Source: a phage
Sequence record: PZ347661.1
Reading direction: 5' to 3' (one strand)
Length of the DNA: 64,000 nt
Shown: piece by piece, positions 1 through 48,848 of the stretch
Layout: every line of letters begins with the position of its first letter
Position numbering within the stretch: the stretch's first letter is position 1
Translations under genes and position numbers: made by a program
Notes under the pieces: generated by a model
Seen by the model: only the letters and a program-made list of their open reading frames with translations
What the model was told of the DNA's origin: nothing
Databases searched by the model: none

Positions 1-86
1 GGCTGAGGCTACACCCTTACACTCAACTAGCCCCCCCGGTATGTTGACGGTGTAGCCACCACCCTACCCCACCTTACACGTTACAC

Positions 87-2396: not shown

Positions 2397-2427
2397 AGTC
2401 CTCCATTAGGGGGACTTCTATTTTTTA
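2397..2427 (+). terminator. intrinsic terminator (8-bp stem, ATTA loop, T tract)
   Basis: AGTCCTCC-ATTA-GGGGGACT followed by TCTATTTTTT. Confidence 0.6.
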
Positions 2428-2502
2428 TTCCTGAATAGTTAGACCCGAAGGGTCAACCGTACGAAGTACGGTTAGATATGTATTTAAATAGGAGAAATAA
2501 CC

Positions 2503-2820
2503 TTGAATGAAATTGTTTGTATACTTCCTCAATCAGCTAAGATAGCTGACCGGAATATACGTATCCACTTACCATTCCCATTAAGCAATCCATTCACTCG
2601 TAATGAAAGAACCACAGTAGAAGACGTGGAGGTAGCTTATGAGGCTTACCTTCGTAATCGTCTTATTAGTGGTGACAAGTTAATTACAGCAGAGATGGAA
2701 AGGATTGCATCCTTTGTAACAGATAGTACAGGTAAGCCTGTTGGCTTAATTGGTACTGAATCTGATGTGAATGTTATTCGTAAAATATTAATGGAGGCAC
2801 TAAGTGAACAACCTCAGTGA
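2503..2820 (+). CDS. hypothetical protein (105 aa, TTG start)
   Basis: ORF with AGGAG 8 nt upstream of TTG. Confidence 0.45.
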   Translation: MNEIVCILPQSAKIADRNIRIHLPFPLSNPFTRNERTTVEDVEVAYEAYLRNRLISGDKLITAEMERIASFVTDSTGKPVGLIGTESDVNVIRKILMEALSEQPQ

Positions 2821-3037
2821 TGTAATTGTAGGTAATGAGATATTCGTTGACCGAAAAGGTTATGCCCGAATTAAACTAAAGGGTACTAACAGAACTATTG
2901 TTCGTAAGGTGTACTCTAAACCTTTTAGCAATTTCTCTATTGATGAAGTACGTATTAATAACAGGATGTACTTCATAGATAGTAAAGTATCTGTATGTCA
3001 TACAGATGGTAAAACCTCTCTTGAATATACTTACTAA
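2804..3037 (+). CDS. hypothetical protein (77 aa, GTG start)
   Basis: ORF overlapping previous gene end. Confidence 0.35.
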   Translation: MNNLSDVIVGNEIFVDRKGYARIKLKGTNRTIVRKVYSKPFSNFSIDEVRINNRMYFIDSKVSVCHTDGKTSLEYTY

Positions 3038-3049
3038 GGAATAAACAAA

Positions 3050-3271
3050 ATGTTGTTCAGCACTAATTATGGTATTTGCCCGATTTGCAATAAAGGAAGA
3101 GGAGTTGCTAATCATAAGAAGTGTAGTCGTATTCTACAGAAACAACGGAACCAGAAAGAATGGGATAAGATATTGGAAAACCAACACAAAGATGAGTTCA
3201 AGAAGACAGCTGTTAAGGCATCTACTCAGCTCATTCGTCGTACTAACTTCATAGAAGGTTATCAGAAATGA
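3050..3271 (+). CDS. hypothetical protein with N-terminal CPICNK motif (73 aa)
   Basis: ORF with AAGGA RBS; Cys pair may indicate a zinc ribbon. Confidence 0.5.
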   Translation: MLFSTNYGICPICNKGRGVANHKKCSRILQKQRNQKEWDKILENQHKDEFKKTAVKASTQLIRRTNFIEGYQK

Positions 3272-3624
3272 AACTAATCGTAGCTGGTGGAAGAGACTTC
3301 GTAGATACCAATCGTATGATTGAGGAATTACAGAAGTTAGTAAATTCAGGGAATATACCTGAATGCCCAGAATTAGTATGTGGCATGGCTCGTGGAGCAG
3401 ATATATTAGCTTTCCGTCTATGGAAATCTGCAAATATGCAGATACATGTATTCCCTGCTGAATGGGATACCTATGGCAAGTCTGCTGGATTCCGTAGGAA
3501 TAAAGAAATGGGTGAATTTGCAGATGCTGCTGTATGTTTCTGGGATGGTAAATCCAAAGGAACCAAGCACATGATTGATATCATGAATAGGCTTAATAAA
3601 CCTGTATACGTTGTGAGGTACTAA
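3268..3624 (+). CDS. Rossmann-like SLOG/DUF2493-like protein (118 aa)
   Basis: LIVAGGRDF ... CGMARGADILA pattern resembles LOG/DprA-type nucleotide-binding folds; family assignment is an inference. Confidence 0.5.
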   Translation: MKLIVAGGRDFVDTNRMIEELQKLVNSGNIPECPELVCGMARGADILAFRLWKSANMQIHVFPAEWDTYGKSAGFRRNKEMGEFADAAVCFWDGKSKGTKHMIDIMNRLNKPVYVVRY

Positions 3625-3882
3625 ATGATTATTACATATCCTACAGGCAAGAACGTAGATTATATGGGACATACTATCCAAGTACCACATTGGGTTAAGT
3701 ATATAGCTTTATATACTCGGCAATATAAAAGTGCTAATACCTCATTAATAGGATTCTCTAAGAAACCTAAGCTAACAGAAAACAATATCTGGGTATCCTC
3801 TGGGAGACAAGAAGAGATTGGTTTTTGTGATTTGAGTATTATCGATAATAACGTTTACCTAACGCTGGAGAAAGTAGCATGA
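3625..3882 (+). CDS. hypothetical protein (85 aa)
   Basis: ORF in tight operon. Confidence 0.45.
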   Translation: MIITYPTGKNVDYMGHTIQVPHWVKYIALYTRQYKSANTSLIGFSKKPKLTENNIWVSSGRQEEIGFCDLSIIDNNVYLTLEKVA

Positions 3883-4070
3883 ATATTGAAAATTATGAAA
3901 TCACTTTAGTAACAGCAGATAGTAAAACTGTGATTAAAAAACAATTAAATAATGACCCCGAGATGCTTAACTGGGTTGCAGAGCAATTTGCTGATGTTAA
4001 CTCAGCACAGGTAACCATACGGAATATGTCAGGAAAAGTAGTAGCATTTACAGGCAAGGAGCCAGTATGA
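3879..4070 (+). CDS. hypothetical protein (63 aa)
   Basis: ORF, start overlaps previous stop. Confidence 0.45.
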   Translation: MNIENYEITLVTADSKTVIKKQLNNDPEMLNWVAEQFADVNSAQVTIRNMSGKVVAFTGKEPV

Positions 4071-4381
4071 AAACTATTTTAGTAGTCCATGATTCTACAT
4101 TTACTGATGTAGATAAGATGATGCGTAATATTGATTATGTATCTCAGACAAGCCAAGCATTCAATGAAGAGTTTACTCTGTACTGTAATGCTGAATCACC
4201 ACTGGTTCCTATCCTTAAGGAATCAGGTCTACCATTCTCTACAGAGAACTTCCCGGAAGAACCGGACTATGTAATCTCATTTATCTATGACTTACATGAT
4301 GGTTCTGAAACCAGTGAATTAGCTATGAACCAGTGGCGTAGTAAACGTCCTGTGTTCGCATTTCAGGTACTTAAGCCATGA
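4067..4381 (+). CDS. hypothetical acidic protein (104 aa)
   Basis: ORF, ATGA overlap coupling. Confidence 0.5.
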   Translation: MKTILVVHDSTFTDVDKMMRNIDYVSQTSQAFNEEFTLYCNAESPLVPILKESGLPFSTENFPEEPDYVISFIYDLHDGSETSELAMNQWRSKRPVFAFQVLKP

Positions 4382-4620
4382 TATATGAAGAATATTACGT
4401 ATTTAAAAAAGGAGATGAGTTTATAGCCATGCCTGATGATTACATTGATTGGCATACAACTCCAGTATTAAGCGAAGCATTTTCCGTACCTAACCTAGAA
4501 GAGGTTAATAAAGTAATGAACGGGGTAATGTTAACTAGAGGACTAGCTTATAAAATAGACGCATTAGAAGGAACTACTGTATGTAAAGTAGTTACATCTA
4601 TTGAGGTACTTAAACCATGA
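4378..4620 (+). CDS. hypothetical protein (80 aa)
   Basis: ORF, overlap coupling. Confidence 0.5.
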   Translation: MIYEEYYVFKKGDEFIAMPDDYIDWHTTPVLSEAFSVPNLEEVNKVMNGVMLTRGLAYKIDALEGTTVCKVVTSIEVLKP

Positions 4621-4997
4621 AGATTATGTCATTAGGTGACGACACCAATGCTTTACTAGGTGTATCTGCACGCCCAATCATCATTGTTAATAAACATCAC
4701 GGTAAATCCGGTGAGTATATTGGACGTGGCTCACCATTAGGCAATCCATTCGTTATTGGTAAAGACGGTTCGAGAGAACAGGTTATAGCCAAGTATCGAG
4801 TATGGCTTAATGAACAAATTATGAGAAAGAATCCAGTTGTACTGGATGAACTTAATCGTCTTGGTAATAAAGCCATTGACGAGAAAGGATTAGCCTTACA
4901 GTGCTTCTGCTATCCAAAACCATGTCATGGTGAGGTTATTAAAGAGAAGCTAGTAAAGGCTATGTATAACTACTTTGTAGAAAACCCAAAAGGATAA
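4617..4997 (+). CDS. DUF4326-like protein (126 aa)
   Basis: GRGSPLGNPF motif; family assignment from memory, needs HMM confirmation. Confidence 0.5.
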   Translation: MKIMSLGDDTNALLGVSARPIIIVNKHHGKSGEYIGRGSPLGNPFVIGKDGSREQVIAKYRVWLNEQIMRKNPVVLDELNRLGNKAIDEKGLALQCFCYPKPCHGEVIKEKLVKAMYNYFVENPKG

Positions 4998-5000
4998 TTT

Positions 5001-5360
5001 ATGAAAGAAATCCTAGTATTCACTACTAATACACTAGGGCAGCATACCAATGCTGCTGCCAAGCTAGCTTATAAGAAGCATGGTGCTCGCTGGGGTATGG
5101 CCTATGGTCATTACGGTAATAGCTTTGCCATTCCAGTAAGGGATGGCAGTGGTAACCGAATTAAAGAAGGTGCTATCTATGGCTTCGTTGAAGGCTTTAT
5201 TTCCTATGCATCTACTAATCCTCAGTGGGATTTCAAAGTAATGGGGGATGACTTTCTGGACCCATACCTGTTCAATAATGTCACTGGCAATGTGCTATTG
5301 CCAGAAGCATGGCGTAAATACTTAGGTGATGCTTACAACTACTGGGGAACCTCCTCATGA
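5001..5360 (+). CDS. hypothetical protein (119 aa)
   Basis: ORF with AAAGGA RBS. Confidence 0.55.
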   Translation: MKEILVFTTNTLGQHTNAAAKLAYKKHGARWGMAYGHYGNSFAIPVRDGSGNRIKEGAIYGFVEGFISYASTNPQWDFKVMGDDFLDPYLFNNVTGNVLLPEAWRKYLGDAYNYWGTSS

Positions 5361-5533
5361 CTAAAAAAGAGCGCAGTCAATTACAATCCTTAATACGTAA
5401 ACATGTAGCAGCTCAAGTTGCTCTATCATGGTCTGGTTCTCAAGATCCAGAAGACAGAGAAATAATTGAAGCCAATGCAGAGTATGCAAAGCGTAAATTA
5501 TACAATTGGATTTCAATGAGAGTAGACCAATAA
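5357..5533 (+). CDS. hypothetical small protein (58 aa)
   Basis: ATGA overlap with previous stop fills a gap without ORF-track entries. Confidence 0.35.
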   Translation: MTKKERSQLQSLIRKHVAAQVALSWSGSQDPEDREIIEANAEYAKRKLYNWISMRVDQ

Positions 5534-5607
5534 ATGGAGTTACTAACTTATTTAATAGTCCTATGGTCCATAGGTGGAACCACTGTATGGCTTATACCGG
5601 AGATACT

Positions 5608-5871
5608 ACCATGACATATGAAGAACTGTGGTCTGCTCAAGTCAGAGCCAGAGCACTCACACGGCATGACATCTATTGTGCATTACAAAATGAATTAAAG
5701 AGTCGTACTAAACTAGGCCACATATCTGGCTTCATCAAAATACCTATGACTAGCCTAGTCTGGCCTTATCAGAAGAAAAGTAATGAGTTTAATGGTAATG
5801 GTCTGCATGTACGCATCGACTACATTGGTAATGAAAATAGTATTCGTATTACCTTTTGGACCAAACGTTAG
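5608..5871 (+). CDS. hypothetical protein (87 aa; track ORF 5506 trimmed to ATG with GGAG RBS)
   Basis: ATG at 5608 preceded by CCGGAGATACTACC; start uncertain. Confidence 0.35.
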   Translation, partial: TMTYEELWSAQVRARALTRHDIYCALQNELKSRTKLGHISGFIKIPMTSLVWPYQKKSNEFNGNGLHVRIDYIGNENSIRITFWTKR

Positions 5872-5876
5872 GTAAT

Positions 5877-5891
5877 AGCTGCTCCGCAGCT
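5877..5891 (+). promoter_or_regulatory. Hairpin promoter candidate of the N4 virion-RNAP type (stem AGCTGC/GCAGCT, loop TCC, then TTTGG)
   Basis: Perfect 6-bp inverted repeat with TCC loop, immediately upstream of the RNAP II genes. Confidence 0.55.
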
Positions 5892-5924
5892 TTTGGTTAT
5901 TAATCATATTTAGGAGAATAAGCG

Positions 5925-6743
5925 ATGTACTCATCTATTGAACATCAGAAGCAACTTGAAATCCTTTTCAACAAGAATCAATTACTCCCTCGCATGAGGA
6001 AGGAATTCGAGGACTCCGAAGAAATTGACTTTAAGGCATTTGCTGCCTATTTAGAAATTGATTATAAGCTGCTCATTGATGCAATGGTGCAGATTGCCCT
6101 ACATAAACGTGCTGACATTCAGACTATGATTGGCTCTCTCATGAGTCACTCAGATGATGCTCAGTACATCGCTGACTGTCTGTATAAGATGGCAGAGAAT
6201 GACTGCTTCAACTATGACCCTACCATCGACAAGTTCGGTGTTATCTATGAGATTAGTGAAGATGTTCAGATGGAACTGGAAGCATTCCAGTATCCTTTGC
6301 CTATCGTAAGTGCTCCTAAGCCTGTTAAGTGTAACCGTGATACTGGTTACTACGAAAGCAGAGGTAGCATCATCCTCAAGAAGAACCATCATGAGATGGA
6401 TGTCTGTCTTGATCACATCAACCGCATGAATAACCAACGTCTCTGCATTAACTGGGACGTTGCTAACTATGTAAAAGACTCTCGTCCTAATATGGATAAA
6501 CCTAAAGAGGGTGAAACCCGTCAGGACTATGAGAAACGTGTCAAAGCCTTTGAGAAGTACAGCCGTACAGCTAAGGAAGTAATGGAGTTAGTGACCAAGG
6601 AAGGTAATAACTTCTCTCTGGCTCACAAATATGACAAACGTGGGCGTACATATGCCTGTGGCTACCACATCAACTATCAGGGAACCAGTTACAACAAAGC
6701 TGTTCTGGAGTTCGCTGATAAGGAGCTAGTAAACAATGATTAA
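5925..6743 (+). CDS. phage RNA polymerase II small subunit (N4 gp15-like, 272 aa)
   Basis: Size and position match the N4 two-subunit RNAP II (recalled sizes 269 and 404 aa); adjacent to the large subunit, which carries polymerase motifs. Confidence 0.65.
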   Translation: MYSSIEHQKQLEILFNKNQLLPRMRKEFEDSEEIDFKAFAAYLEIDYKLLIDAMVQIALHKRADIQTMIGSLMSHSDDAQYIADCLYKMAENDCFNYDPTIDKFGVIYEISEDVQMELEAFQYPLPIVSAPKPVKCNRDTGYYESRGSIILKKNHHEMDVCLDHINRMNNQRLCINWDVANYVKDSRPNMDKPKEGETRQDYEKRVKAFEKYSRTAKEVMELVTKEGNNFSLAHKYDKRGRTYACGYHINYQGTSYNKAVLEFADKELVNND

Positions 6744-6846
6744 TCATCGTGCAGTAGCTGACTTCTACGCTCACAGAGAACTAGTGTTAAAACGTATTAA
6801 CGAAGCTCTCAAACGTGAGGCAGAGGCCAAACGTAAACGTAAATAA
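6736..6846 (+). CDS. hypothetical small basic protein (36 aa) between the RNAP II subunit genes
   Basis: ATG with AGGAGC RBS; very short, speculative. Confidence 0.25.
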   Translation: MINHRAVADFYAHRELVLKRINEALKREAEAKRKRK

Positions 6847-6900: not shown

Positions 6901-8118
6901 ATGCAACTGTTAACCGCTAAAGAATACCTGAAAGTAGATATCGCCAATAACTATGGCTTAGATAAGAAGACATGGGATGAACGTATTGCCTGGTTCGATG
7001 AGAACGAAGCTAACCTGCTTAATCTGGTAGATGAAGCTGAAGATTCTGCTCTGTTCTTTGCAGGTGTAAATGCATGGAAAGACATGAAAGCTGGTAAACC
7101 TATCGGTTATGCCGTAGCTCTGGATGCTACATCATCTGGCTTACAGTTACTGGCTTGCCTGACTGGTGACCGTTCTGCTGCTGAACTGTGTAACGTAGTT
7201 AACTATATGGGTGAGAATGGTAAACCCTTACGTCGTGATGCTTATACAGTTATCTATCACAAGATGCTGGACATCCTTGGTGAAGCATCACGTATTAAAC
7301 GTAGTGACACTAAGCAGGCAGTTATGACTGCATTCTACGGTTCAGAAGCCAAGCCTAAAGAAGTATTCGGTGAAGGTATTCGTCTCAAGACTTTTGAGAA
7401 TGTAATGGAAACTGTTGCTAGTGGTCCTTGGGCACTTAACAAGTTCTTACTGCAATGTGGTAATCCTGATGCTAACCGTTACGTATGGGTACTTCCTGAC
7501 AACTTCCATGCTGTCATTAAGGTCATGGTTCCAGAAGTACAGACTGTTAACTTCTTAGGTAAACCATTCGACATCACTCGTATGGTTCAGGGTACTGAAG
7601 AGAAGACTCGTATGCTCTCTGCTAACATTACCCACTCTATTGATGGGATGGTAGTACGTGAGATGCTGCGTCGTTGTAACTTCGACCCTAAACTGGTTGC
7701 CTATGTACGTGAACTATGTGATATCGGGCCAAGCAATTATCCTGCTATCGAAGGGAACCTGGAAATGACTATGGAAATTTGGAATCATTATGAGAAGTCT
7801 GGGTTCCTGTCACTATCTATTCTGGACTACCTTGACCCGAATACCATTGCATTGGTAGACCGTCAGGTAATAGCAGATATGATTGACACTCTGCCTAAGA
7901 AACCATTCCCTGTAATGACTGTACATGACTGCTTCCGTTGTCATCCTAACTACGGTAATGACCTGCGTCGTCAGTACAATCAGATTCTGTCTGATATTGC
8001 TAAGAGTGACCTACTGGGCTTCATCTTGTCTCAGGTACTAGGACAAGAGTTCTCCGCTGGTAAGCTGGATGACAGCCTCTGGCAGGACATTCTTGAAACA
8101 GACTATGCATTAAGTTAA
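6901..8118 (+). CDS. phage RNA polymerase II large subunit (N4 gp16-like, 405 aa)
   Basis: KQAVMTAFYGS resembles motif B and TVHDCF motif C of T7-like single-subunit RNAPs; size matches N4. Confidence 0.8.
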   Translation: MQLLTAKEYLKVDIANNYGLDKKTWDERIAWFDENEANLLNLVDEAEDSALFFAGVNAWKDMKAGKPIGYAVALDATSSGLQLLACLTGDRSAAELCNVVNYMGENGKPLRRDAYTVIYHKMLDILGEASRIKRSDTKQAVMTAFYGSEAKPKEVFGEGIRLKTFENVMETVASGPWALNKFLLQCGNPDANRYVWVLPDNFHAVIKVMVPEVQTVNFLGKPFDITRMVQGTEEKTRMLSANITHSIDGMVVREMLRRCNFDPKLVAYVRELCDIGPSNYPAIEGNLEMTMEIWNHYEKSGFLSLSILDYLDPNTIALVDRQVIADMIDTLPKKPFPVMTVHDCFRCHPNYGNDLRRQYNQILSDIAKSDLLGFILSQVLGQEFSAGKLDDSLWQDILETDYALS

Positions 8119-8125
8119 TAAACTA

Positions 8126-8159
8126 GCCTCATTCCTTCGGGAGTGAGGCATATTTTTTG
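8126..8159 (+). terminator. intrinsic terminator (10-bp stem with TTCG loop, T tract)
   Basis: GCCTCATTCC-TTCG-GGAGTGAGGC followed by ATATTTTTT. Confidence 0.65.
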
Positions 8160-38012: not shown

Positions 38013-41000
38013 TTAGTTAGTGAGGTTGAGCCAAGGGTTCAGGTTATGAGCACGTAAGCCTTGACCGAAACCGAAGGAGTAACCAAGGTTGCCTTGTGCA
38101 GCAATGCTAAAGATGTTGTCCTGAATAGGCAGGCCAACGTTACCAAACATAGTAGGAGTTGGAGCCAGCATAGCCATAGCAGCATGTACAGGGTTGTTAC
38201 GAATCATGGACACTGCAACTTTTGCGGAACGAATCTTAAAGTTGTAGAACCACATAAGACCAACGCTTTCCATATAACCACGGAAGCGTCCTGGCAAACG
38301 GTCATAGTTAATGAACTCTTCCGTCACACGTCCAAGTGCTTCTTCACGGGTTTTACCTTTACGCTTAGTCAGTTCATCATAGATGATCGCTTTAGCAATA
38401 AAGTCAGAGTACTCAACCGTCTTCTGGATACCCTGGAAGAGAGCAGTATCCTTAGTGATAAGTGCATAACGACCTGCATTGCGTACAGACTTAGGCAGCT
38501 TATCAGCCAGCTTATCCATGTATTCGTGGAGTTTGCCCTCAGTAATCAGGATGTCATCACGTCCAATACCAGCATCTGCAATTGAGGAGAACTCACCTGC
38601 TTCTAGCAGAGGCCAGATACTCAAACGCTTATGACTATCCGTGATGGACTGAATCTCAGCTTTCAACTTACGAATCTGGTTCGGGTTAGTAGCTGCACGT
38701 AATTCTGCTTCTGCATCTACCTGACGTAAACGAGATTTCAGATACTGGTTAATCTCAGCAGTCTTCTGTGGAATGCTCTTAGCAATGTTCTTAACGGGTA
38801 CACCACGAGCAACCATCTGATAAAGGTTAGCCAGGAAGTTAACAGCAGGTACGACTACTGACTTAACTACAATCAGAGTCTTAGCTTCTTTAACTAAGTT
38901 TTGAACCAGGTTCTCACCACCCATTACATACTTGTAGGCACGGTTGCCGAATACACCCAACATAGCCTTCTTGAAGGTATCCAGCGTTTCTGGGGACCAA
39001 CGAGAATTACCAGACCAGGCATCACCAACGGAAGCTGCACGATAACCAAGAGCATCATTAAGCATGTCACGACGTACCCACAGCTCACCTGGGCCAAACA
39101 GACTTTCTGCTTTCTGACGTGTTTCACTGTTCATCAGTTTAAGAGCATCGGCAGTTACTGGGTCCAGTTTAGAACCAAGAAGGTTAACGTACTGAGACTT
39201 ATTAGAAGCAGACATCTTAATGTCGTTCTCATACATGCTATACAGATTCTCAATTAGCATATCGTTGAAACGCTGGGCCTTGGCCTCTTCTACCTGACGA
39301 CCACGCCATACACCAATTGCACGAGCAAGATGGTTCTCACCCTCAATGTGCTTCAGCATGTTAGGGTCAATGGATTGCTCATAAGCAACCACATTACCAT
39401 TGGCATCATATACAGGCAGAAGTGGTTCATTACCTCGTTCACCACGAGCCAGTGCTTTGGTGATACGGTCCACGGAAGGCTTGTCAGTAATACGACCTGC
39501 TACCATGGTTCCCATCGTAAAGCCTGTACCAAGGTCTACACCACCAGCAGTATTACGAACGTTCTGTAAGATACCCTGTGAGAATGGAGCCTGTGACTGT
39601 ACTGGTGCAAAGTAGTAGCTACGTGCTGGACCACGATTAGCAGAGCTACCCTGATAAGTACCCAGACGTACATAAGACTTCTCAATCAAATCAGCAAATT
39701 GATTATCTTCAGCAACAATCAGGTTAACACCTTGTTTGTTCTCACCAGGGATATACCCTTTGTACTGGTTCAAGGTTGCACGCGAATCAGACTTGGCTTT
39801 AGCCATTTCATCCTTACGTTGACCAACCAGGTAAGAAGTAGCAAAGTCCATACCTTCAATTTCTGTCTGAGCCAGTAAAGATAACATCTCACGGTCAGAT
39901 TTATTCATTGCTTCCAGTGCATACAGGGTAATGAGTTTATCCAGTTGAGCTACATCAACAACAGAGCGTGTAGTCTTACGCTCACCCAGCAAGCGTGAAA
40001 TTGCAGTAGCATTACGCAACAAGTTATTTCCGACTGTACCATTAATCATGTACTGAGCCAGTTGCTTAGATTTACGGCTAATCAGATGCCAGTTACGTCC
40101 TGCTTGTTTCTGCAAATCTGCTTCCAGTTTATTAACCTCACGGTCAACAATCTTCTGGTCAGACAACAGGTCACGAATTTCAGCCAGAGACATAGTGTCA
40201 CGCAGGACAGCTAAGTCAGTTTTACCCATACCGGTATGCATTGCTTTCCACTCAACATTAGTCAGCTTACGGCTGAACTTAGATGCGATAGTGGTAGGCA
40301 GGTGTTCACGGAACTGTTGACGGTCAGCCTGTACCTGTGCACGTACTGCTTTAATCAAATCATATACAGAAGCATTACTCTTAGTACGACCGATTATGTC
40401 ATTAACCAGGTCATGGAACGGTTGCCATACTTTACCCTGGTTCATTGCAGCCATAACACCTTCAGCTACGATTGAACCATTCTTCTCTGTAGCAATAGCA
40501 GCTACCAGTTGTGCAGCATGAGCAGCACCTTTAACCAATGGGTTCTTGGTATTAGCTGCAACTTCACGAGCACCTTCCAAAGCACGGGTAGACAGTACAT
40601 CAATAGAATCCACCAGATACTGGTTAGCACGGTCAATAGCATTACCGGTAGGAGTAGCAACGGAATCATAGAAGGACTCTGCATTAAGACTGGTCTGCAT
40701 AATTGTCTGAGCTAGTGCATCCATACCTTCTTGTACGTTAGTGGCTTTAGTATCGCCTGCTACACGGGCATTCAGACTAGCCATTGCAGCAGTACCGATG
40801 TTAGTCAGCATTGCATCAACAGTATTGCCTGACTTCTTATCTGCTTTCATAACAGGAATATCAGCCAGTACTTTACGTACCTCTTCACTTACCATTGCCA
40901 GACCAACAAAGGTAGGCAGCAAGGAAGAACGACCCTGTGCATCAAACTCAATGTTGTTAGCACCCATGATGGTATCGAACTTCTGCTGTGCATAGTAACG

Positions 41001-44000
41001 GTCAGCAGGGTTAGTACTATCTGGGTCAGCCATGAACGATTCAACAGTTAGGTTCTTAGTAACGTGTGTGTAGTATTCCTGTGCACGAGCCATGGCAGCT
41101 GGGTTAATAGCAGCCTCGGTAGCCAGTGCAGCAACAATGTTAGTGAAGAGACGCTGTTCCTGCATATTCATGGTGAAGCCATGAGCCTGAACATCACGAG
41201 TTACTTTAGTTGCATTCACTACTGCATCAGAGAACTTACCTTTACGAATTACTTGCTGTACTGGTTCTGAACCAATGTAGTCAGTAATCAGTTTATCGAA
41301 GGTTTTTCCTAACTCTTCCAGACGAGTATTGTTACCGTATGCTTTGTTATGGAACAGGGTAGTGTCCTTAGCTACAGCAGCAGTAGGAGCCTGTCCACGC
41401 ATAACTACAGCAGAGTTAAACAGTAAGCCAGAGAACATATCATCTGCATTAGACGGAGCTTTCTTACGTCCAAATACCAGGCGTTTGATTGCTTCATATA
41501 CAGCCTGAGCCATAGCTTTAAGTGCAGTGGTTTTCTTCTGCTTACCAATCAGTTCACGGTTAGTTAAGCCCCAAGCCATGTACTCATTCAATGCAGCAGC
41601 TTTAGCCATTGCTGGTTCAATGAAGCCATTGGACAAGTGACCATTAATGGTATTCAGTGCATCAGCATATGCTTCACGTACTACCGGAGATTCATCCTTA
41701 ACATCCAGAGTACGGAATTGGTTCATCAGGTCTTCAATATTCTGGACAGCTTCATTAGGAGTACCCTCATAGTGAGCCAGTACAGATTCAAAAGTAGAGG
41801 CATGTACTAATTCATGAACCAGAGTCTCTAAGGAAGGGGTAACTAAGTAGATGGTCTTATCTTCAAAGTTAGTCCAGCCATATGCATTACCAGCTTCAGC
41901 AGCTTCAATATCTTCCGGTGCAGGGCGAGTAATATTCTTCTCAATAGCGTAGGCATCCAGTTGAGAAGGTGTACCGTAAACAACCTTATAGTCTTTAGCA
42001 GCAAGAGATTTCTGTATTTCTTTCAATACTGCTTGCTGTTCAGGAGACATCTCTTTAGCCAGCTTAGTGATAGCAGTATTAGACAGCAGACGTACACCAG
42101 ACTTCAGTACACGACCTACCTTCTCCATAGCTGGTACAACTTTCACCGGCACTTCCTTCACTGGTTCTGCCTTCGTTGGTTCCGCTTTAGCAGCACGTAC
42201 TGCTTCACGACGCTTGTTTAGTTCAGCATCAAACAGCTCGTTCAGCTTAGCTACTTGCTGGTCTACAGTCAGACCTTCCAGAGAGATTTTACCGTTGTTC
42301 ACATAAGGAGCACCTACAGCAGCCATCTGGTCAACAGTGACCTGTACCTGGTCCATTACCTTGTGACGAATATCTACACCCAAAGCAATGTTACGCAGGT
42401 TACGCTCAATCAGTGCAATACCAGAATCTCTAATCATAGAAATTTTATAATCTCTATCACCATCTACTCTGGCAATATGAGCACGTTGCTCAAAGTCTAA
42501 AGCAGACTTTGCAATAGCATCTATTGCTGAATCGGACAGCTTATTTAAATCAACATTCTTAACAAACTTAGAGAAAGACTCATATACATTCTTGATAGGG
42601 TTACCCTGCCAGGAAGTATATACAGCCTCATTAGCTTTACGGCTTGCATCAGTAATGTCATTAATACCAATGTTCATACCATCAAAGATTTTCAGGGTAT
42701 TCTTCGGAGCACCTTTCATAGTAGAAAGAGTCTGCATCATCATGCCATCACCAGTACCGATGGTCATAAATGGAATACCTGCAACACCTGCTTGCGAAGG
42801 AGCATAGATGCTCATTGGCACACGCATACGGTCATCTAAGTTGGTGGCCAGTACTTGGTTAGCAACATCAGTGTTTTCACTACCAGCAATGTAGAAAGTC
42901 TGTGAGCCAGTCTTAATCATTGGAGCCAGTGGTGCTAAGCTATTCTGGATTTCATTCAGTTCTTTCTGTGTTAAGAAATCGCCTTTTTTCCATGTTGGGT
43001 CTTTTTCTTTTTCTGCCAGCTTAGCCTGTACTGCCTGTTGGAACATATCCTGCAATACCAGAGATTGTATCTGAGTAGCCTTCTGCAAGTTCTCAGTAGA
43101 GTGCATCAACCCTTCACCAACAGTAAATCGGATACCTTGTCTCATTGGCTCAACAAAGAAATGCAGCATATTCTCTTGTAAGTTCTTCAGAGCATCCCCG
43201 GATACGGTAAACTCCTGAGGATTTAACTCACCAGTCAGAACACCATCTACTTCCTTAATAAATAACCTACCTTTGCGTTTGGCTGGAATCTTGCCAGTCA
43301 ATGCTTCCATAGAAGTAAGGAAGGTATCCAGCATAGCCTGAGCATCAGCTTCAGAAGCAGCCTCCTTACCAAACATCGCCATAGCTGGGGAAATGCTAGG
43401 GTCAGCAGCACGGGCTTTTAGAACGTCGCTTAAGCGTTCATAGATGGCGTCAGTAATTGCACTTACCATCTTGCCTGCAATACCGCGAGCACCAGAACCA
43501 TAAATGGTAATAGTCAGTGGGTTTTTAGCGATACCACGCTTCAGGTCCAGAGTACCATCTTCATTAAGATTGAAGTCTTTGATGAACAGGTCCATTAACT
43601 TCTGGAGATGGTCCATCTGATTTATAATAGGAATATTTTTGCTGTAAGTATTGCGTAGTTCATTCAGATGGAATTGCAGACTATTGGTAGATGCTTCATA
43701 CAGGTCAACATTATCATCCTGAGTATGATGCTCATTCATAGTCTTACCGGCTTTACCGAAGAACAAACCACCTTTAGCAGTATTCTTAATCCAGTTTGGG
43801 GTGAACTTACCACCAGTCATTAATACCATTGCGTTGATTGGCCCGTTGGTTACACCATCGGCTTCAACGTACAGTGGGGTATTAAAGTTGGCTCGGTCAT
43901 CACTGTTAAGGTAACGGGCATATTCCATAAGAGCCATGAGAGCTACAAATGATTTATCATTACCCAGAGATGTTCTCAGGATATCCACTGCGTCAGCAGG

Positions 44001-47000
44001 CAAGTATCCAGACTTATCAAACTCAACCATCATATCTACAGCAGGCTTCAGTTTACCTTCCAGAGCCTTGGTAAGTTCTTCTGACATAGTTTCACGAGTC
44101 ATTTTATGAACTTTGATACCCAATGCCTGAGCCAGACCTAACTGGAAGCCAGAGAAGTCTTCATTGTTTTGGTTCGATAAATCCAGAGTAGCTTTAGTAG
44201 GTAAGATAGCCTCACGAACCAGCTTAGCTGATTGAGGATTGTATTTGCCCAACATCTGCATACGACCAACACGGGTCATATTGTAAGCATAGTGAATAGG
44301 TACAGAAGAAATGTCTTCACTCTGTGCTCTCACCTGTTCAATAACAGAGAACAGTTGGTTGTAAGAATCTTCTACAGAACGATTCTTACCTTCCAGAGAT
44401 TTAGCATGGTTCTTATTAAGTAAATCCTTATCCAGAGTACCTGCACCCATCAGTTCAAGGATACGGTCTTTACCTAATGCTTCATAGAACTGAACCATTG
44501 GAGTATGTACAAAGAACTCAGTAGCCTGTTCTGCTTTAAGAGCAGCTTTCTGTTCTGGAGTATTACGGACAGCAGGGTTACGTAACTGAGTAGGAGCCAC
44601 TGAAGGAATATCATCACCCAGGTACAATTTCTCTTCTGGTTCTACGAGGACAGCTTCCTCGATAGCAGTAGGGAATTTGTTAATGGCATCGTTATCATCC
44701 AGTTTCTCAATGGTATACAGACCAATAGTCTTATTAGATTCTGGGTCAATTTCAGACACATCAAGCATAGACTCTTTAACTTCACCCATCTCAATGAGAG
44801 AAGACAGAATCTCTGTAGCCATTGCCATTGGAATACCTTTGGTATAACCCAATGGTGCATCAGCATTACGATTAAGTCCCCAATAAGATTCAATCTTTTG
44901 AGCCAGTGAGTTAGTAGCTTCTACTAAGGTTTGTGCATTCTCAAATTCTGCGAGGATGCCCTCTGGTAACAAGGAAGCATTTACACCAGTAATTGCAGCC
45001 ACATCCTGCATGTCTTTAATAGCAGCATTCTGTGTAGCAGTAAGTCGCCATTGCAGACCAGCAAGTACAGCAGTCTCTAATAACTGGTCATTGAACTTAA
45101 AGGTATCACCATCTTTCTCTACGATGTTAAGCAGTTTGCCACCTACCCAACGGTTAGCCTCAGTACCCTCTGCAAAACGTTTACCAACATTCTTGTTAGC
45201 AAGGAACTTAGCCAGACGATCAGACAGAGTAGTCTTCAGAGTTTCACCAAAATCAAATAAGTCCTGGTAACGCTTAATCACATCACTTGTGAGAGCGTTA
45301 TTTTCTCTTTGAGTGAATGCTTCAAAACGAGCAGCAGAAGACAATGCTTTCTTAACATCAGTCAAAGGAGATTCAGAACCAATGGTACGAGACTTAGGTT
45401 CTTCTGGAAGAGAAAATGCTTTAAGGAACTGGTTCGGTGTCTTGTCGTTGTTATAGACAGGGAACACTGTTTCTATTCCCGATAGAGGTTTACCGCCAAC
45501 GGTATAGTCTGCTTTCAGTTGAGCCAGTGATACTTCTTCCTTCTCGACGTTATTGGTATTAAGCCCAGATGTATCTACACCAATCTGAATCAGTGCATTG
45601 TTTGCTTCTACGAATGATTGAACAGTATTAAATTGTTCCGGGGTCAGCTTCTGGTTATCAAACAGTTGCAAAGATACAAATGGTTGTTCACTACCTTTGT
45701 AGAAGGTAGAGCGAATAGCACCAGTATCTAAAGACATATCACGATAACCATCATGACCAAATACATCAGACAGACTGATATGGTCACCATTAGAACCAAC
45801 AACAGTACCATCAGCAAAGAGCCATGGACTTTCCCTACGGTCACCATACTTATTAAGAGTATCTTGTGAAATAGTATTCTCTTTCACATAAGAATCTCTT
45901 TCAGATTCAGTAGGCTGTTCAACGGTATCCTGTTTTTCAGACTGGTTCTCAGGTTCTTTTACAGTCTGTGGTTTAGACTCTTTATTAGTAGGTTCTGTTT
46001 TAACAGCTTCACTAACAGAGGGTTTAGTCTGTACAGTAGGGGTAACTGGTTCCTGTTTCGTAACAGGAGTTTCATCAACCTGATTCACTGGTTCATTGGT
46101 CTGTTGGGATTGAGCAGCATCAAGATTGCCCTGACGGAACTCTTTAACTACCTGGGCAGCAGGCTTGTCCAGACGTGAATCCAATGGGGTAACTTTCACA
46201 TGAGAAACATTAAGCTCCGGGTAAGCCGTAGCAAGTGCGTTAGCAATATCAGCTACGGTCTTGGCTTCCAGTCCTACTTGCTGGGCAAACTTAACAGACT
46301 TGGTATCATACGGATTGACACCGAGGCCAGTACGACTACGTACCCATTCACGCGAGGGAGTAAGAGCCTGATAATGGACAGACTTATTCTTATCCGCATT
46401 CCCAGAAATCAGATGCTCATTCAACGCTCCGACCTTATTCTGCATGTGCTGGGCGAACTTCATAAAGTCGTCGAGATAAGCGGAAGCCAAATCGAAGTTA
46501 CCAGAGTTGTACGCAGAACGAATGCGTTTAGCATGTTGCAACGCAGAGTACTGGCCTTCATTAGAACGAGATTCGTCGGTTTTAATTTGTTTACTAACAA
46601 TGTCTTGAGGACGTAAGCCTAGTTCTTCTGCTTTAGCGTCAAATTCTCGTGCTCCTTGCAATAGAGCAGCAGCAGATTGCAGGGCAGCACGCTGACGATT
46701 CCCCAGTGTAATCTTACCTTCACTCGCATGTTTCAGAACCATGTTCACTGAATCTGCATCCAGTACTTCTGGAGACACATCAGCAGCCATAGCAATATTG
46801 TTTGCCTGGGCTTGGTTAGCTTCTTCAGTAGCTTTCAGTTTACCTGCTTCAGCCTGTTCCTGAATCATGGAATGAATGGCACGGAATGCACGGAGTACTT
46901 TCGGTGTATTCTGAACATTAGCCATCAGGCCGGAGAACTGGTCAACGATATTAGCAGCAGGAGAACCCTGTTCCAGATTAGCTAATGCACCTGGGTCACG

Positions 47001-48848
47001 GTTAATGAAGCTATCCATAGACATGATGTTGTCATACATCTGGATTGCAGCTTCCATTTGAACGTTAGGGTCTTCAGCAGTATTAACCAGGTCAGCCATC
47101 TTCTGAATAGCTTCAACACGGTTAGTGGAACCAGAAACAGCTTCACGGATTGCAGGACTAGCTTGTTCCAGTTCTACTGGGTCAAACTTCATTGCCTGAG
47201 TTAAGTCAGCAGCATACTGAGTAGCAGCAGCTTTCTCTTCAGGAGAAATATCCATTGCATCTACTGCTTCCTGAACAGTTGCTTGTGCTTGTTCTGCCTG
47301 AGCAGTAGCTTCCTGTGCAGCAGCGTTAACTGTAGCATCTGATACAGGGGATGCTTGTTCATTACGCTTAGCAACTTCTTCTCCACGTTGAACCAGAATG
47401 TTAGTAATAGGTGAAGCTACTTTTGCTAATGCCTTACCAGCCAGAGAAGCACCAGCCAAGGTAGTACGTACAGCAGGACCAACGGCAGCACCAGCAGCCT
47501 TAACAGTTGCACCAGGAGCTTGAGCAACTCCAGCAGAACCGAAGCCGTACAGTGCACCCAGACCTGCTTGCTCACCAACACCTTTGAGGATGTCACGAGA
47601 TGCATCAACATTACCTTGGATTGCCTTGTTCTGTGCAAACTGACTTGTACCAGACTGGATACCTTCTTCTACAGTCTCACGCAGCATGTTGGAACCAGCA
47701 CCAGCCAGTGAACCTACCTTAAGTGGATTAAGTTCAAACTTGGATACCAATGGAGCAGTAAGAGCAGCAACTGGAGCAGTTAAACCAGCAGCAGTGATAC
47801 CTGTTTCAGATGCAGTCTGACGTCGTGCCTCTTCAGGAGTTAAGCCGTCTTTAATGTGTTGTTGGTATACAGGAGATTTAGCAGCCAGTTCACTGAATGG
47901 CATTTCCATAATTTCATTGGCAGTCTGTTGATATGCACCACCAGCTTCCATACCACCAATTGCTATAGCAGGTGCAGCAATACGACCAGCAGTCTGTGCA
48001 ATCCGTGCAGGACGTGAACCTAACTCAGCAGCTAAGGTAATACCCTTAACAGCTTTGTCCCCACCTACCATTACTTTACCAAGTGCGGATACACCACGGA
48101 TAAGTGGACCACCAGTGAAGAGAGAACCAACGCCTTCAGCCAGACCATCTGTAGCAGCCATGCCATTGGACAAGGTATTAGCAACAGAATCATAAGCATC
48201 CCGACCAATTCGAGACAGAGAAGCAACGAGTTCACTTTCTCCTTTAGCAATATCCTGCTTATAGAGTTTCTCATTTTCCTGTGCAGATATTACGTTCTGG
48301 TTCTGTACTACATTACGACGAGCATTCAGTGCATCAGACTGTAGGTTGTGTACACCTTTATTCAACCAGTCAAGACCGGAAGCAATGGATGCCCCGGCAT
48401 TATCATTGACCAAGCCTGTGCCAAGAGCAGCAATGCCCCCAAGGGTATTAGCAACACCAAGACCAACACCAGAAAGGGTATCACCAAGTGCTTCACCATA
48501 TGTGCGACTCTTAGTTAAATCACGACGAACAGCATTAGCTGCATTGACACGAGCATTGAGAATGTCCATTCCTTGCTCATTGCCATACTTGTTTACGATT
48601 TCAAGAGGGGAGGCATTAGTAAAATCTGCCTGAATAGAACCTGGGTCAAATGCACCAGCACCTAAGTCACCGGCACGTCCTGCCTGTAATTGGTAAGCGT
48701 TCTGAGAAGTTAATTGGAAAGGGTTTTGCCCTTGTTCAGCTTGTTTCCGAGAGGTTGCAGTAGAGACATCGACTTGCTTAGCAGTAGTGATGCTGTCTGC
48801 GAAACCTGCCAGACGGTCAAATGTTGACATAGCATGATTCCTGTTCAA
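38013..48848 (-). CDS. virion-encapsidated RNA polymerase (N4 gp50-like vRNAP, 3611 aa)
   Basis: Single giant ORF at the late-region position where N4 encodes its ~3500-aa vRNAP; internal KNPLTITIYGSGARG resembles motif B of T7-like single-subunit RNAPs. Confidence 0.85.
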   Translation of the reverse strand: MNRNHAMSTFDRLAGFADSITTAKQVDVSTATSRKQAEQGQNPFQLTSQNAYQLQAGRAGDLGAGAFDPGSIQADFTNASPLEIVNKYGNEQGMDILNARVNAANAVRRDLTKSRTYGEALGDTLSGVGLGVANTLGGIAALGTGLVNDNAGASIASGLDWLNKGVHNLQSDALNARRNVVQNQNVISAQENEKLYKQDIAKGESELVASLSRIGRDAYDSVANTLSNGMAATDGLAEGVGSLFTGGPLIRGVSALGKVMVGGDKAVKGITLAAELGSRPARIAQTAGRIAAPAIAIGGMEAGGAYQQTANEIMEMPFSELAAKSPVYQQHIKDGLTPEEARRQTASETGITAAGLTAPVAALTAPLVSKFELNPLKVGSLAGAGSNMLRETVEEGIQSGTSQFAQNKAIQGNVDASRDILKGVGEQAGLGALYGFGSAGVAQAPGATVKAAGAAVGPAVRTTLAGASLAGKALAKVASPITNILVQRGEEVAKRNEQASPVSDATVNAAAQEATAQAEQAQATVQEAVDAMDISPEEKAAATQYAADLTQAMKFDPVELEQASPAIREAVSGSTNRVEAIQKMADLVNTAEDPNVQMEAAIQMYDNIMSMDSFINRDPGALANLEQGSPAANIVDQFSGLMANVQNTPKVLRAFRAIHSMIQEQAEAGKLKATEEANQAQANNIAMAADVSPEVLDADSVNMVLKHASEGKITLGNRQRAALQSAAALLQGAREFDAKAEELGLRPQDIVSKQIKTDESRSNEGQYSALQHAKRIRSAYNSGNFDLASAYLDDFMKFAQHMQNKVGALNEHLISGNADKNKSVHYQALTPSREWVRSRTGLGVNPYDTKSVKFAQQVGLEAKTVADIANALATAYPELNVSHVKVTPLDSRLDKPAAQVVKEFRQGNLDAAQSQQTNEPVNQVDETPVTKQEPVTPTVQTKPSVSEAVKTEPTNKESKPQTVKEPENQSEKQDTVEQPTESERDSYVKENTISQDTLNKYGDRRESPWLFADGTVVGSNGDHISLSDVFGHDGYRDMSLDTGAIRSTFYKGSEQPFVSLQLFDNQKLTPEQFNTVQSFVEANNALIQIGVDTSGLNTNNVEKEEVSLAQLKADYTVGGKPLSGIETVFPVYNNDKTPNQFLKAFSLPEEPKSRTIGSESPLTDVKKALSSAARFEAFTQRENNALTSDVIKRYQDLFDFGETLKTTLSDRLAKFLANKNVGKRFAEGTEANRWVGGKLLNIVEKDGDTFKFNDQLLETAVLAGLQWRLTATQNAAIKDMQDVAAITGVNASLLPEGILAEFENAQTLVEATNSLAQKIESYWGLNRNADAPLGYTKGIPMAMATEILSSLIEMGEVKESMLDVSEIDPESNKTIGLYTIEKLDDNDAINKFPTAIEEAVLVEPEEKLYLGDDIPSVAPTQLRNPAVRNTPEQKAALKAEQATEFFVHTPMVQFYEALGKDRILELMGAGTLDKDLLNKNHAKSLEGKNRSVEDSYNQLFSVIEQVRAQSEDISSVPIHYAYNMTRVGRMQMLGKYNPQSAKLVREAILPTKATLDLSNQNNEDFSGFQLGLAQALGIKVHKMTRETMSEELTKALEGKLKPAVDMMVEFDKSGYLPADAVDILRTSLGNDKSFVALMALMEYARYLNSDDRANFNTPLYVEADGVTNGPINAMVLMTGGKFTPNWIKNTAKGGLFFGKAGKTMNEHHTQDDNVDLYEASTNSLQFHLNELRNTYSKNIPIINQMDHLQKLMDLFIKDFNLNEDGTLDLKRGIAKNPLTITIYGSGARGIAGKMVSAITDAIYERLSDVLKARAADPSISPAMAMFGKEAASEADAQAMLDTFLTSMEALTGKIPAKRKGRLFIKEVDGVLTGELNPQEFTVSGDALKNLQENMLHFFVEPMRQGIRFTVGEGLMHSTENLQKATQIQSLVLQDMFQQAVQAKLAEKEKDPTWKKGDFLTQKELNEIQNSLAPLAPMIKTGSQTFYIAGSENTDVANQVLATNLDDRMRVPMSIYAPSQAGVAGIPFMTIGTGDGMMMQTLSTMKGAPKNTLKIFDGMNIGINDITDASRKANEAVYTSWQGNPIKNVYESFSKFVKNVDLNKLSDSAIDAIAKSALDFEQRAHIARVDGDRDYKISMIRDSGIALIERNLRNIALGVDIRHKVMDQVQVTVDQMAAVGAPYVNNGKISLEGLTVDQQVAKLNELFDAELNKRREAVRAAKAEPTKAEPVKEVPVKVVPAMEKVGRVLKSGVRLLSNTAITKLAKEMSPEQQAVLKEIQKSLAAKDYKVVYGTPSQLDAYAIEKNITRPAPEDIEAAEAGNAYGWTNFEDKTIYLVTPSLETLVHELVHASTFESVLAHYEGTPNEAVQNIEDLMNQFRTLDVKDESPVVREAYADALNTINGHLSNGFIEPAMAKAAALNEYMAWGLTNRELIGKQKKTTALKAMAQAVYEAIKRLVFGRKKAPSNADDMFSGLLFNSAVVMRGQAPTAAVAKDTTLFHNKAYGNNTRLEELGKTFDKLITDYIGSEPVQQVIRKGKFSDAVVNATKVTRDVQAHGFTMNMQEQRLFTNIVAALATEAAINPAAMARAQEYYTHVTKNLTVESFMADPDSTNPADRYYAQQKFDTIMGANNIEFDAQGRSSLLPTFVGLAMVSEEVRKVLADIPVMKADKKSGNTVDAMLTNIGTAAMASLNARVAGDTKATNVQEGMDALAQTIMQTSLNAESFYDSVATPTGNAIDRANQYLVDSIDVLSTRALEGAREVAANTKNPLVKGAAHAAQLVAAIATEKNGSIVAEGVMAAMNQGKVWQPFHDLVNDIIGRTKSNASVYDLIKAVRAQVQADRQQFREHLPTTIASKFSRKLTNVEWKAMHTGMGKTDLAVLRDTMSLAEIRDLLSDQKIVDREVNKLEADLQKQAGRNWHLISRKSKQLAQYMINGTVGNNLLRNATAISRLLGERKTTRSVVDVAQLDKLITLYALEAMNKSDREMLSLLAQTEIEGMDFATSYLVGQRKDEMAKAKSDSRATLNQYKGYIPGENKQGVNLIVAEDNQFADLIEKSYVRLGTYQGSSANRGPARSYYFAPVQSQAPFSQGILQNVRNTAGGVDLGTGFTMGTMVAGRITDKPSVDRITKALARGERGNEPLLPVYDANGNVVAYEQSIDPNMLKHIEGENHLARAIGVWRGRQVEEAKAQRFNDMLIENLYSMYENDIKMSASNKSQYVNLLGSKLDPVTADALKLMNSETRQKAESLFGPGELWVRRDMLNDALGYRAASVGDAWSGNSRWSPETLDTFKKAMLGVFGNRAYKYVMGGENLVQNLVKEAKTLIVVKSVVVPAVNFLANLYQMVARGVPVKNIAKSIPQKTAEINQYLKSRLRQVDAEAELRAATNPNQIRKLKAEIQSITDSHKRLSIWPLLEAGEFSSIADAGIGRDDILITEGKLHEYMDKLADKLPKSVRNAGRYALITKDTALFQGIQKTVEYSDFIAKAIIYDELTKRKGKTREEALGRVTEEFINYDRLPGRFRGYMESVGLMWFYNFKIRSAKVAVSMIRNNPVHAAMAMLAPTPTMFGNVGLPIQDNIFSIAAQGNLGYSFGFGQGLRAHNLNPWLNLTN

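Follow-up and report, generated by a model that had tools for sequence, protein, structure and literature searches.

A conserved hairpin directly upstream of the RNAPII genes of a G7C-like phage is the probable counterpart of the N4 early promoter P3

Introduction

Is the short inverted repeat directly upstream of the RNAPII genes of an N4-like phage an early promoter of the injected virion RNA polymerase (vRNAP), and if so, does it belong to the promoter set of phage N4 or does it extend this set? The question concerns positions 5877-5891 of a 64,000-nucleotide stretch of phage DNA (sequence record PZ347661.1), which we call the window. An earlier note, made from the letters of the window, had interpreted this repeat as a fourth hairpin promoter beyond the three early promoters that it gave for N4.

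For N4, three vRNAP start sites (P1-P3) have been mapped experimentally in the genome's leftmost 10% (PMC4496689). The mapping is due to Haynes and Rothman-Denes (1985) and the dissection to Glucksmann et al. (1992), with a summary in PMC4496689. The N4 vRNAP transcribes gp1, gp2, gp15 and gp16 (PMC13434306), and direct vRNAP control of RNAPII is the established scheme for this phage (PMC4496689; PMC13434306). RNAPII itself is a heterodimer and, with gp1 and gp2, is responsible for middle transcription (PMC4496689).

The hairpin and its genomic surroundings

The region 5400-6800 shares 90-96% identity with G7C-like coliphages (Gamaleyavirus, Schitoviridae) and St11Ph5 was the best match. As the first letter of the window aligns with position 1 of both N4 and St11Ph5, the window begins at the genome's left end, the first part to be injected. 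The + strand gene order follows that of N4 (homologues of gp1, gp2, gp9, gp11, gp12, gp14, gp15, gp16 and gp17). The open reading frame 5925-6743 is 99% identical to the St11Ph5 protein annotated as 'gp15; RNAP1 subunit B', and the small flanking ORFs gave no match to Pfam. The features of the locus are as follows:

5862-5876, + strand: upstream flank ACGTTAGGTAAT, which is conserved together with the hairpin (alignment, blastn) and contains the stop of the upstream ORF
5877-5891, + strand: inverted repeat AGCTGC-TCC-GCAGCT; the template (-) strand, 5'-AGCTGC-GGA-GCAGCT-3', is the putative promoter hairpin
5881-5887, + strand: heptamer GCTCCGC (-14 to -8; template -12A, -11G, -10G, -9C, -8G), invariant in 15 orthologues
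5895-5896, + strand: predicted initiation site, with G5895 as +1 (template C) and G5896 as +2, eight nucleotides after -8 (5887)
5912-5916, + strand: Shine-Dalgarno sequence AGGAG for gp15, read from the sequence
5925-6743, + strand: RNAPII small subunit (gp15 homologue), 65% identity to N4 gp15, first gene of the predicted unit
6901-8118, + strand: RNAPII large subunit (gp16 homologue), 68% identity to N4 gp16, Pfam RNA_pol PF00940 (E 3e-14)
8126-8149, + strand: terminator-like hairpin with a 10-bp stem, UUCG loop and T-run (RNA fold -18.8 kcal/mol, z -4.3)

When we inspected the + strand, we found AGCTGCTCCGCAGCT at 5877-5891 and TTTGG at 5892-5896, which is exactly where AGCTGC-TCC-GCAGCT and TTTGG had been reported before. 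The repeat consists of a perfect 6-bp stem and the 3-nt loop TCC, and a search for AGCTGCNNNGCAGCT gave one match in the window and none in 100 shuffled sequences. The hairpin starts 6 nt past the TAG that ends the upstream ORF (5869-5871) and is separated by 33 nt from the ATG of the gp15 homologue (5925). The earlier note had placed it 34 nt upstream of the small-subunit gene; the immediate upstream position was correct, but the value of 34 is the difference of the coordinates and not the gap. The distance of about 5 kb from the other three hairpins was also reproduced, with the nearest hairpin of this type ending at 1030 (4.85 kb away). A sequence scan listed no sigma-70 promoter in the gap between the two genes (5872-5924). 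When the - strand was folded as single-stranded DNA, it formed exactly the 5877-5891 hairpin (-5.7 kcal/mol, z -3.2) and none of 200 shuffled sequences reached an equal stability.

Strong terminator-like hairpins punctuate the early region (475-497, 1557-1576, 8126-8149 and also 2394-2419). They have G+C stems of 8-10 bp, mostly CTTCGG (UUCG) loops, T-runs and RNA z values of about -4, and they are placed after gp1, gp2 and gp16.

Promoter determinants and predicted transcription start

N4 vRNAP promoters carry a GC-rich heptamer, which is centred at -11 between inverted repeats, and they form a stem of 5-7 bp with a 3-nt loop, a G:C loop-closing pair and the loop bases 3'A and 5'G (PMC4496689). 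The enzyme specifically recognises template -11A/G, -10G, -8G and +1C, and it starts transcription eight nucleotides downstream of -8 (PMC4496689). Here, we found that the hairpin at 5877-5891 carries all of these published sequence determinants. In the template strand its 6-bp perfect stem encloses a 3-nt loop, the heptamer reads 5'-GCGGAGC-3' with a G:C closing pair and a 5'-GGA-3' loop, and the complements of C5884, C5885 and C5887 supply -11G, -10G and -8G. The element is located at the left end, 5.9 kb from the start of a roughly 72-kb genome, and has the same + strand orientation as all flanking ORFs.

Counting eight nucleotides from -8, we obtained G5895 as predicted initiation site and the mRNA would carry a 5' leader of 30 nt (5895-5924). 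A GG dinucleotide at this +1/+2 offset is present in all four hairpins of the window, in the three N4 promoters and in 15 of 15 P3 orthologues. Taken together, these data indicate that 5877-5891 is, with high probability, an early promoter for the injected vRNAP and the orthologue of N4 P3. Promoter activity is deduced here from the homology to N4-type promoters. Our literature search retrieved no transcript data for the PZ347661.1 phage or any Gamaleyavirus and no transcript-start data for N4-like coliphages; cappable-seq data were found for LUZ7 and other Pseudomonas phages only.

The virion RNA polymerase encoded in the window

The window also encodes the polymerase that is expected, from its homology to N4 gp50, to read the 5877-5891 hairpin:

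38013-48830 (start codon approximate), - strand: vRNAP gene (gp50 homologue), 68.5% identity to N4 gp50

The N4 enzyme comprises 3,500 amino acids. Eight of the nine promoter contact residues of the N4 mini-vRNAP (K114, R119, W129, K268, K849, K850, D901, R904) are identical in the window enzyme and these include all base-specific contacts (K114, R119, W129, D901, R904). The ninth residue, K267, which contacts the stem base, is replaced by N. In N4, K267 is reportedly one of two lysines that melt two base pairs at the foot of 7-bp stems. The stems in the window comprise only 5-6 bp and together with the K267N exchange, this may reflect a co-adaptation of enzyme and stem length.

Four hairpins of the same type in the window

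There are exactly four copies of the heptamer GCTCCGC in the 64 kb, all on the + strand and all at the apex of a 5-6 bp hairpin, and each copy is followed after exactly seven bases by GG. This common apex and orientation bear out the assignment of the 5877-5891 hairpin to the same type as the other three. When we defined the family by GCT[CT]CGC, N7, GG and a minimum stem of 5 bp, we counted four members in the window compared with a mean of 0.004 in 500 dinucleotide-preserving shuffles. All four hairpins are co-oriented, intergenic and located inside the first 6 kb. The three sister elements are:

87-99, + strand: putative promoter GTTGC-TCC-GCAAC before gp1 (143-466), counterpart of N4 P1, aligned with N4 90-102
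756-770, + strand: putative promoter AGAAGC-TCC-GCTTCT before ORF 795-1010, extra relative to N4
1016-1030, + strand: putative promoter AGACGC-TCC-GCGTCT before gp2 (1074-1547), positional counterpart of N4 P2

Conservation among relatives

For comparison, we collected sequences with a gp15 relative, 80 loci from IMG/VR and several phages from GenBank. A canonical hairpin precedes gp15 in 18 of 18 Enquatrovirinae genomes or contigs in which gp15 is at least 65% identical; this set includes the window, N4, St11Ph5, ECBP1, IME11, PhAPEC5, a KP8-like contig and JZBo1. The distance between hairpin and gp15 is 30-43 nt, or 248-292 nt when a small ORF is inserted between them.

An alignment of 15 orthologues showed that neither the heptamer nor the GG at +1/+2 varies, that the spacer between stem and GG is variable (TTT, TTA, TAA, TGT, TTC), and that the stem varies in sequence (AGCTGC, GCTGC, AAAGCTGC, GGTGC, AGGTGC, AAGCAGC, AAAGCAGC) with 100% of the stem cells paired. 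Two stem pairs have undergone compensatory exchanges, from C:G to G:C in three sequences and from T:A to A:T in three. The covariation score of 0.231 compares with 0.070 in shuffled alignments and was reached by none of 500 shuffles; controls in which the stem was slid along the alignment paired much less and all scored below the true stem.

The dedicated RNAPII promoter appears to be specific to Enquatrovirinae, at least for the N4-type motif. Among 65 loci with a gp15 identity of 56% or less, no N4-type hairpin was detected within about 900 nt before the RNAPII gene, a search that other motifs would escape, and in JWAlpha, Frozen, S6, Shigella B2 and LUZ7 no hairpin of this N4-type motif lies directly before that gene. 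Many of the distant Schitoviridae contigs (L026-L090) keep a GC-T(C/T)C-GC apex with a GG start in one to four hairpins, which are located 1-6 kb upstream of the RNAPII small-subunit gene and not directly before it.

In five loci, the P3-type hairpin and gp15 are separated by a small ORF (hairpins at L005 6694-6708, L009 6720-6734, L010 6717-6731, L011 6663-6681 and L024 5963-5979). In some of the relatives with such an insertion, the predicted +1 GG begins the Shine-Dalgarno sequence (GGAG), which would leave an almost leaderless 5' end. A further hairpin, AACGC-TCC-GCGTT at 503-515 of L006, has the canonical apex with CG instead of GG at the predicted +1/+2 and may be a decayed or weakened promoter.

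Termination as alternative function

RNA made from upstream would fold the same inverted repeat into AGCUGC-UCC-GCAGCU followed by UUUUGG. The hairpin might, therefore, be an intrinsic (Rho-independent) terminator that stops transcription of the ORFs before it, or a promoter with an additional terminator function, and it would then insulate the RNAPII unit. We consider this reading unlikely. Like intrinsic terminators, the element combines a G+C-rich stem-loop with subsequent Ts; the TTTT after the hairpin fits the pattern of a weak intrinsic terminator, and a consensus scan lists 5877-5891 with six pairs, four of them G-C, and the tail TTTGGTTATT. Its start immediately behind the upstream stop codon would suit such a function, as would the result that the scan found no other terminator-like site on the + strand between 2419 and 5877. 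With its flanks, the RNA folds at -11 kcal/mol; however, the z value is only -1.6 and 15 of 200 shuffled sequences were equally stable. Compared with intrinsic terminators, the stem of the window hairpin is short, the loop has 3 nt and the T-run measures only 4 nt. The clear-cut terminators of the phage are of another kind, with stems of 8-10 bp, UUCG loops, longer T-runs and z values of about -4, whereas the three sister hairpins are devoid of a T-run.

More detailed inspection of the orthologues also argues against termination. The T-run is not conserved (tails TTTGG, TTAGG, TAAGG, TGTGG and TTCGG), and a U-tract is absent in 8 of 15 orthologues, while the GG at fixed spacing is invariant. 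Neither the invariant loop nor the GG start has a role in intrinsic termination, and the constant TCC loop and GC closing pairs are accounted for by vRNAP contacts but not by termination. In the comparison with the terminators at 475-497, 1557-1576 and 8126-8149 and with the T-runs of the orthologues, we rejected termination as the main function of 5877-5891.

In the N4 and G7C lineages, in which the P3 hairpin is followed by a TTT(T) spacer, the early promoter might have a second role at the RNA level, as weak terminator or pause site for read-through from the 2419-5877 block. We regard this as a rather doubtful possibility. If it were correct, RNAPII synthesis would strictly need fresh initiation by vRNAP at P3 and, considering that relatives carry three or four promoters, promoter-terminator hairpins would act as modular insulators of early gene cassettes.

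Relation to the N4 promoter P3

We scanned the first 12 kb and then the whole genome of N4 (70,153 bp), also with relaxed criteria, and found exactly three canonical hairpins:

N4 90-102: GTTGC-TTC-GCAAC (N4 genome scan)
N4 557-573: AAGAAGC-TCC-GCTTCTT, the same as the P2 oligonucleotide printed in PMC13492108
N4 4546-4562: AAGCTGC-TCC-GCAGCTT, 40 nt before gp15, at 6.5% of the genome length

These three hairpins and the three mapped starts (PMC4496689) confirm the number of early promoters that had been given for N4. The hairpin at N4 4546-4562 is taken as P3 because it is the sole third canonical hairpin genome-wide and lies within the leftmost 10%. It agrees with the sequence 3'-TTCGACGAGGCGTCGAA-5', which we take to be the template strand of N4 P3. 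The publication PMC13492108 (J Bacteriol 2026) lists three early promoters (P1-P3) in its introduction and 'four early promoters (P1-P4)' of N4 in its discussion, compared with only three canonical hairpins in our scan of the N4 record.

In blastn, window positions 5862-5928 aligned with N4 4531-4606 (78.9% identity over 67 nt, E 5e-9), and both phages show the order gp14 homologue, promoter, gp15, gp16. Since the third N4 hairpin precedes gp15 and aligns with 5877-5891, the window hairpin is very probably the orthologue of P3; it is not an addition to the N4 set. The two elements share the apex GCTCCGC, the core stem GCTGC/GCAGC, the TTTGG start region and the downstream gene gp15, and the similarity extends to the upstream flank ACGTTAGG(T/C)AAT and the TTTTGGT start region. 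They differ in stem length (6 bp in the window, 7 bp in N4 P3) and in the length of the predicted leader, which is 30 nt in the window and 38 nt in N4 (+1 predicted at N4 4565, ATG at 4603). In the window, two extra small ORFs (5357-5533, 5506-5871) are located between the gp14 homologue and the promoter, whereas gp14 of N4 ends 17 nt before the hairpin.

The idea of a truly additional, lineage-specific fourth vRNAP promoter, which would define a regulatory unit that N4 lacks, can draw on the presence of four canonical hairpins in the window versus three in N4. For 5877-5891 it is very improbable, since the element occupies the same position in N4 and in every Enquatrovirinae genome examined. 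The difference in number goes back to the 756-770 hairpin, which accompanies an inserted ORF. We rejected 5877-5891 as extra promoter after the whole-N4 scan, which under relaxed criteria, too, gave the third site before gp15. The comparison with N4, which the earlier note had suggested, thus contradicts its 'fourth copy' at this position. Its second proposal, a separately regulated early transcription unit, fared better: a vRNAP-driven unit of its own is compatible with the promoter anatomy directly before the RNAPII genes, but such a unit is shared with N4.

By position and gene content, the predicted promoter that is additional relative to N4 is that at 756-770, which is tied to the inserted 71-amino acid ORF 795-1010. 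This ORF and the ORF 555-749 are without N4 homologues. St11Ph5 has the same four-site layout as the window, and close relatives have three or four promoters with all variation in the gp1-gp2 interval and never at gp15. This points to an acquisition of small early genes jointly with a hairpin promoter of their own.

The least probable interpretation, which can be discarded, is that the palindrome arose by chance or serves another factor (RNase III-type processing, operator of a DNA-binding protein) and has no promoter role: perfect palindromes can be protein-binding sites, but with 0.004 such motifs expected per window, with the strand bias, with the GG at fixed distance and with an asymmetric TCC loop (never GGA on the + strand), all of which fit a strand-specific promoter, a symmetric operator and a chance event are excluded, and the 6-bp stem is too short for RNase III.

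Comparison with other hairpin promoters

For Klebsiella phage KP8, predicted promoters P1-P4 have been tabulated (Morozova et al., 2019, Table 1; PMC6950046). Like the window, KP8 has four hairpins with GCTCCGC apex and GG start, of which P3 precedes a gp2-like gene and P4 (AAGCAGCTCCGCTGCTTGTGGG) the region of the RNAPII small subunit. The stem of KP8 P4 carries A:T where the window has T:A, which is a compensatory change, and a small ORF separates P4 from the polymerase gene (KP8-like locus L024). The KP8 sites are, like those of the window, predictions. A full-text literature search for the hairpin sequence retrieved only the KP8 paper and one unrelated eLife paper.

The early hairpin promoters of Pseudomonas phage LUZ7 were mapped by ONT-cappable-seq (PMC9163698). 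They resemble those of the window in having 3-nt loops on stems of 4 bp or more, a preference for G as start downstream of the loop and several early promoters per genome. In contrast to the window, LUZ7 has another sequence motif, nine early start sites and a start 13-14 nt from the hairpin centre.

Proposed mechanism and meaning

By homology with N4, we propose that supercoiling, presumably dependent on gyrase, would extrude the hairpin at 5877-5891. The template hairpin 5'-AGCTGC-GGA-GCAGCT-3' would then be stabilised, probably while host SSB covers the other strand. The vRNAP would read the loop purine -11G together with -10G and -8G and start with GTP at G5895, which would give an mRNA with the 30-nt leader. 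The transcript would span gp15 (5925-6743), a short overlapping ORF and gp16 (6901-8118) and probably end at the terminator-like hairpin 8126-8149.

The element at 5877-5891 is a known and conserved part of the Enquatrovirinae transcription programme and is not new: N4 has provided the precedent since 1985 and KP8, as a four-promoter relative, since 2019. No new biology arises from the element itself and the value of the analysis lies mainly in annotation. The hairpin is best described as a conserved switch that would let the injected polymerase make the second phage polymerase, and the likely start of the gp15-gp16 mRNA in the window can be set at G5895. The promoter bookkeeping is also corrected: the RNAPII hairpin is among the three of N4, and G7C-like and KP8-like phages gain their fourth near gp1-gp2 with a small inserted ORF. 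Among the matches listed (60 of the 66 matching the region), none of the 60 phage records annotates the element as a regulatory feature.

Additional elements at the left genome end

An AT-rich palindrome, GTAGATA-AC-TATCTAC, is located at 524-539 between the gp1 terminator and ORF 555-749. As ORF 555-749 lacks its own hairpin promoter, the palindrome may serve as a middle (RNAPII) promoter or bind a protein. The outermost left end of the genome, upstream of P1, carries the inverted repeat GGCTACACC ... GGTGTAGCC (window 7-15 and 50-58), which flanks a C-run. This repeat is conserved in N4 (7-15 and about 50-59) and St11Ph5 and may be a terminal, packaging or injection element.
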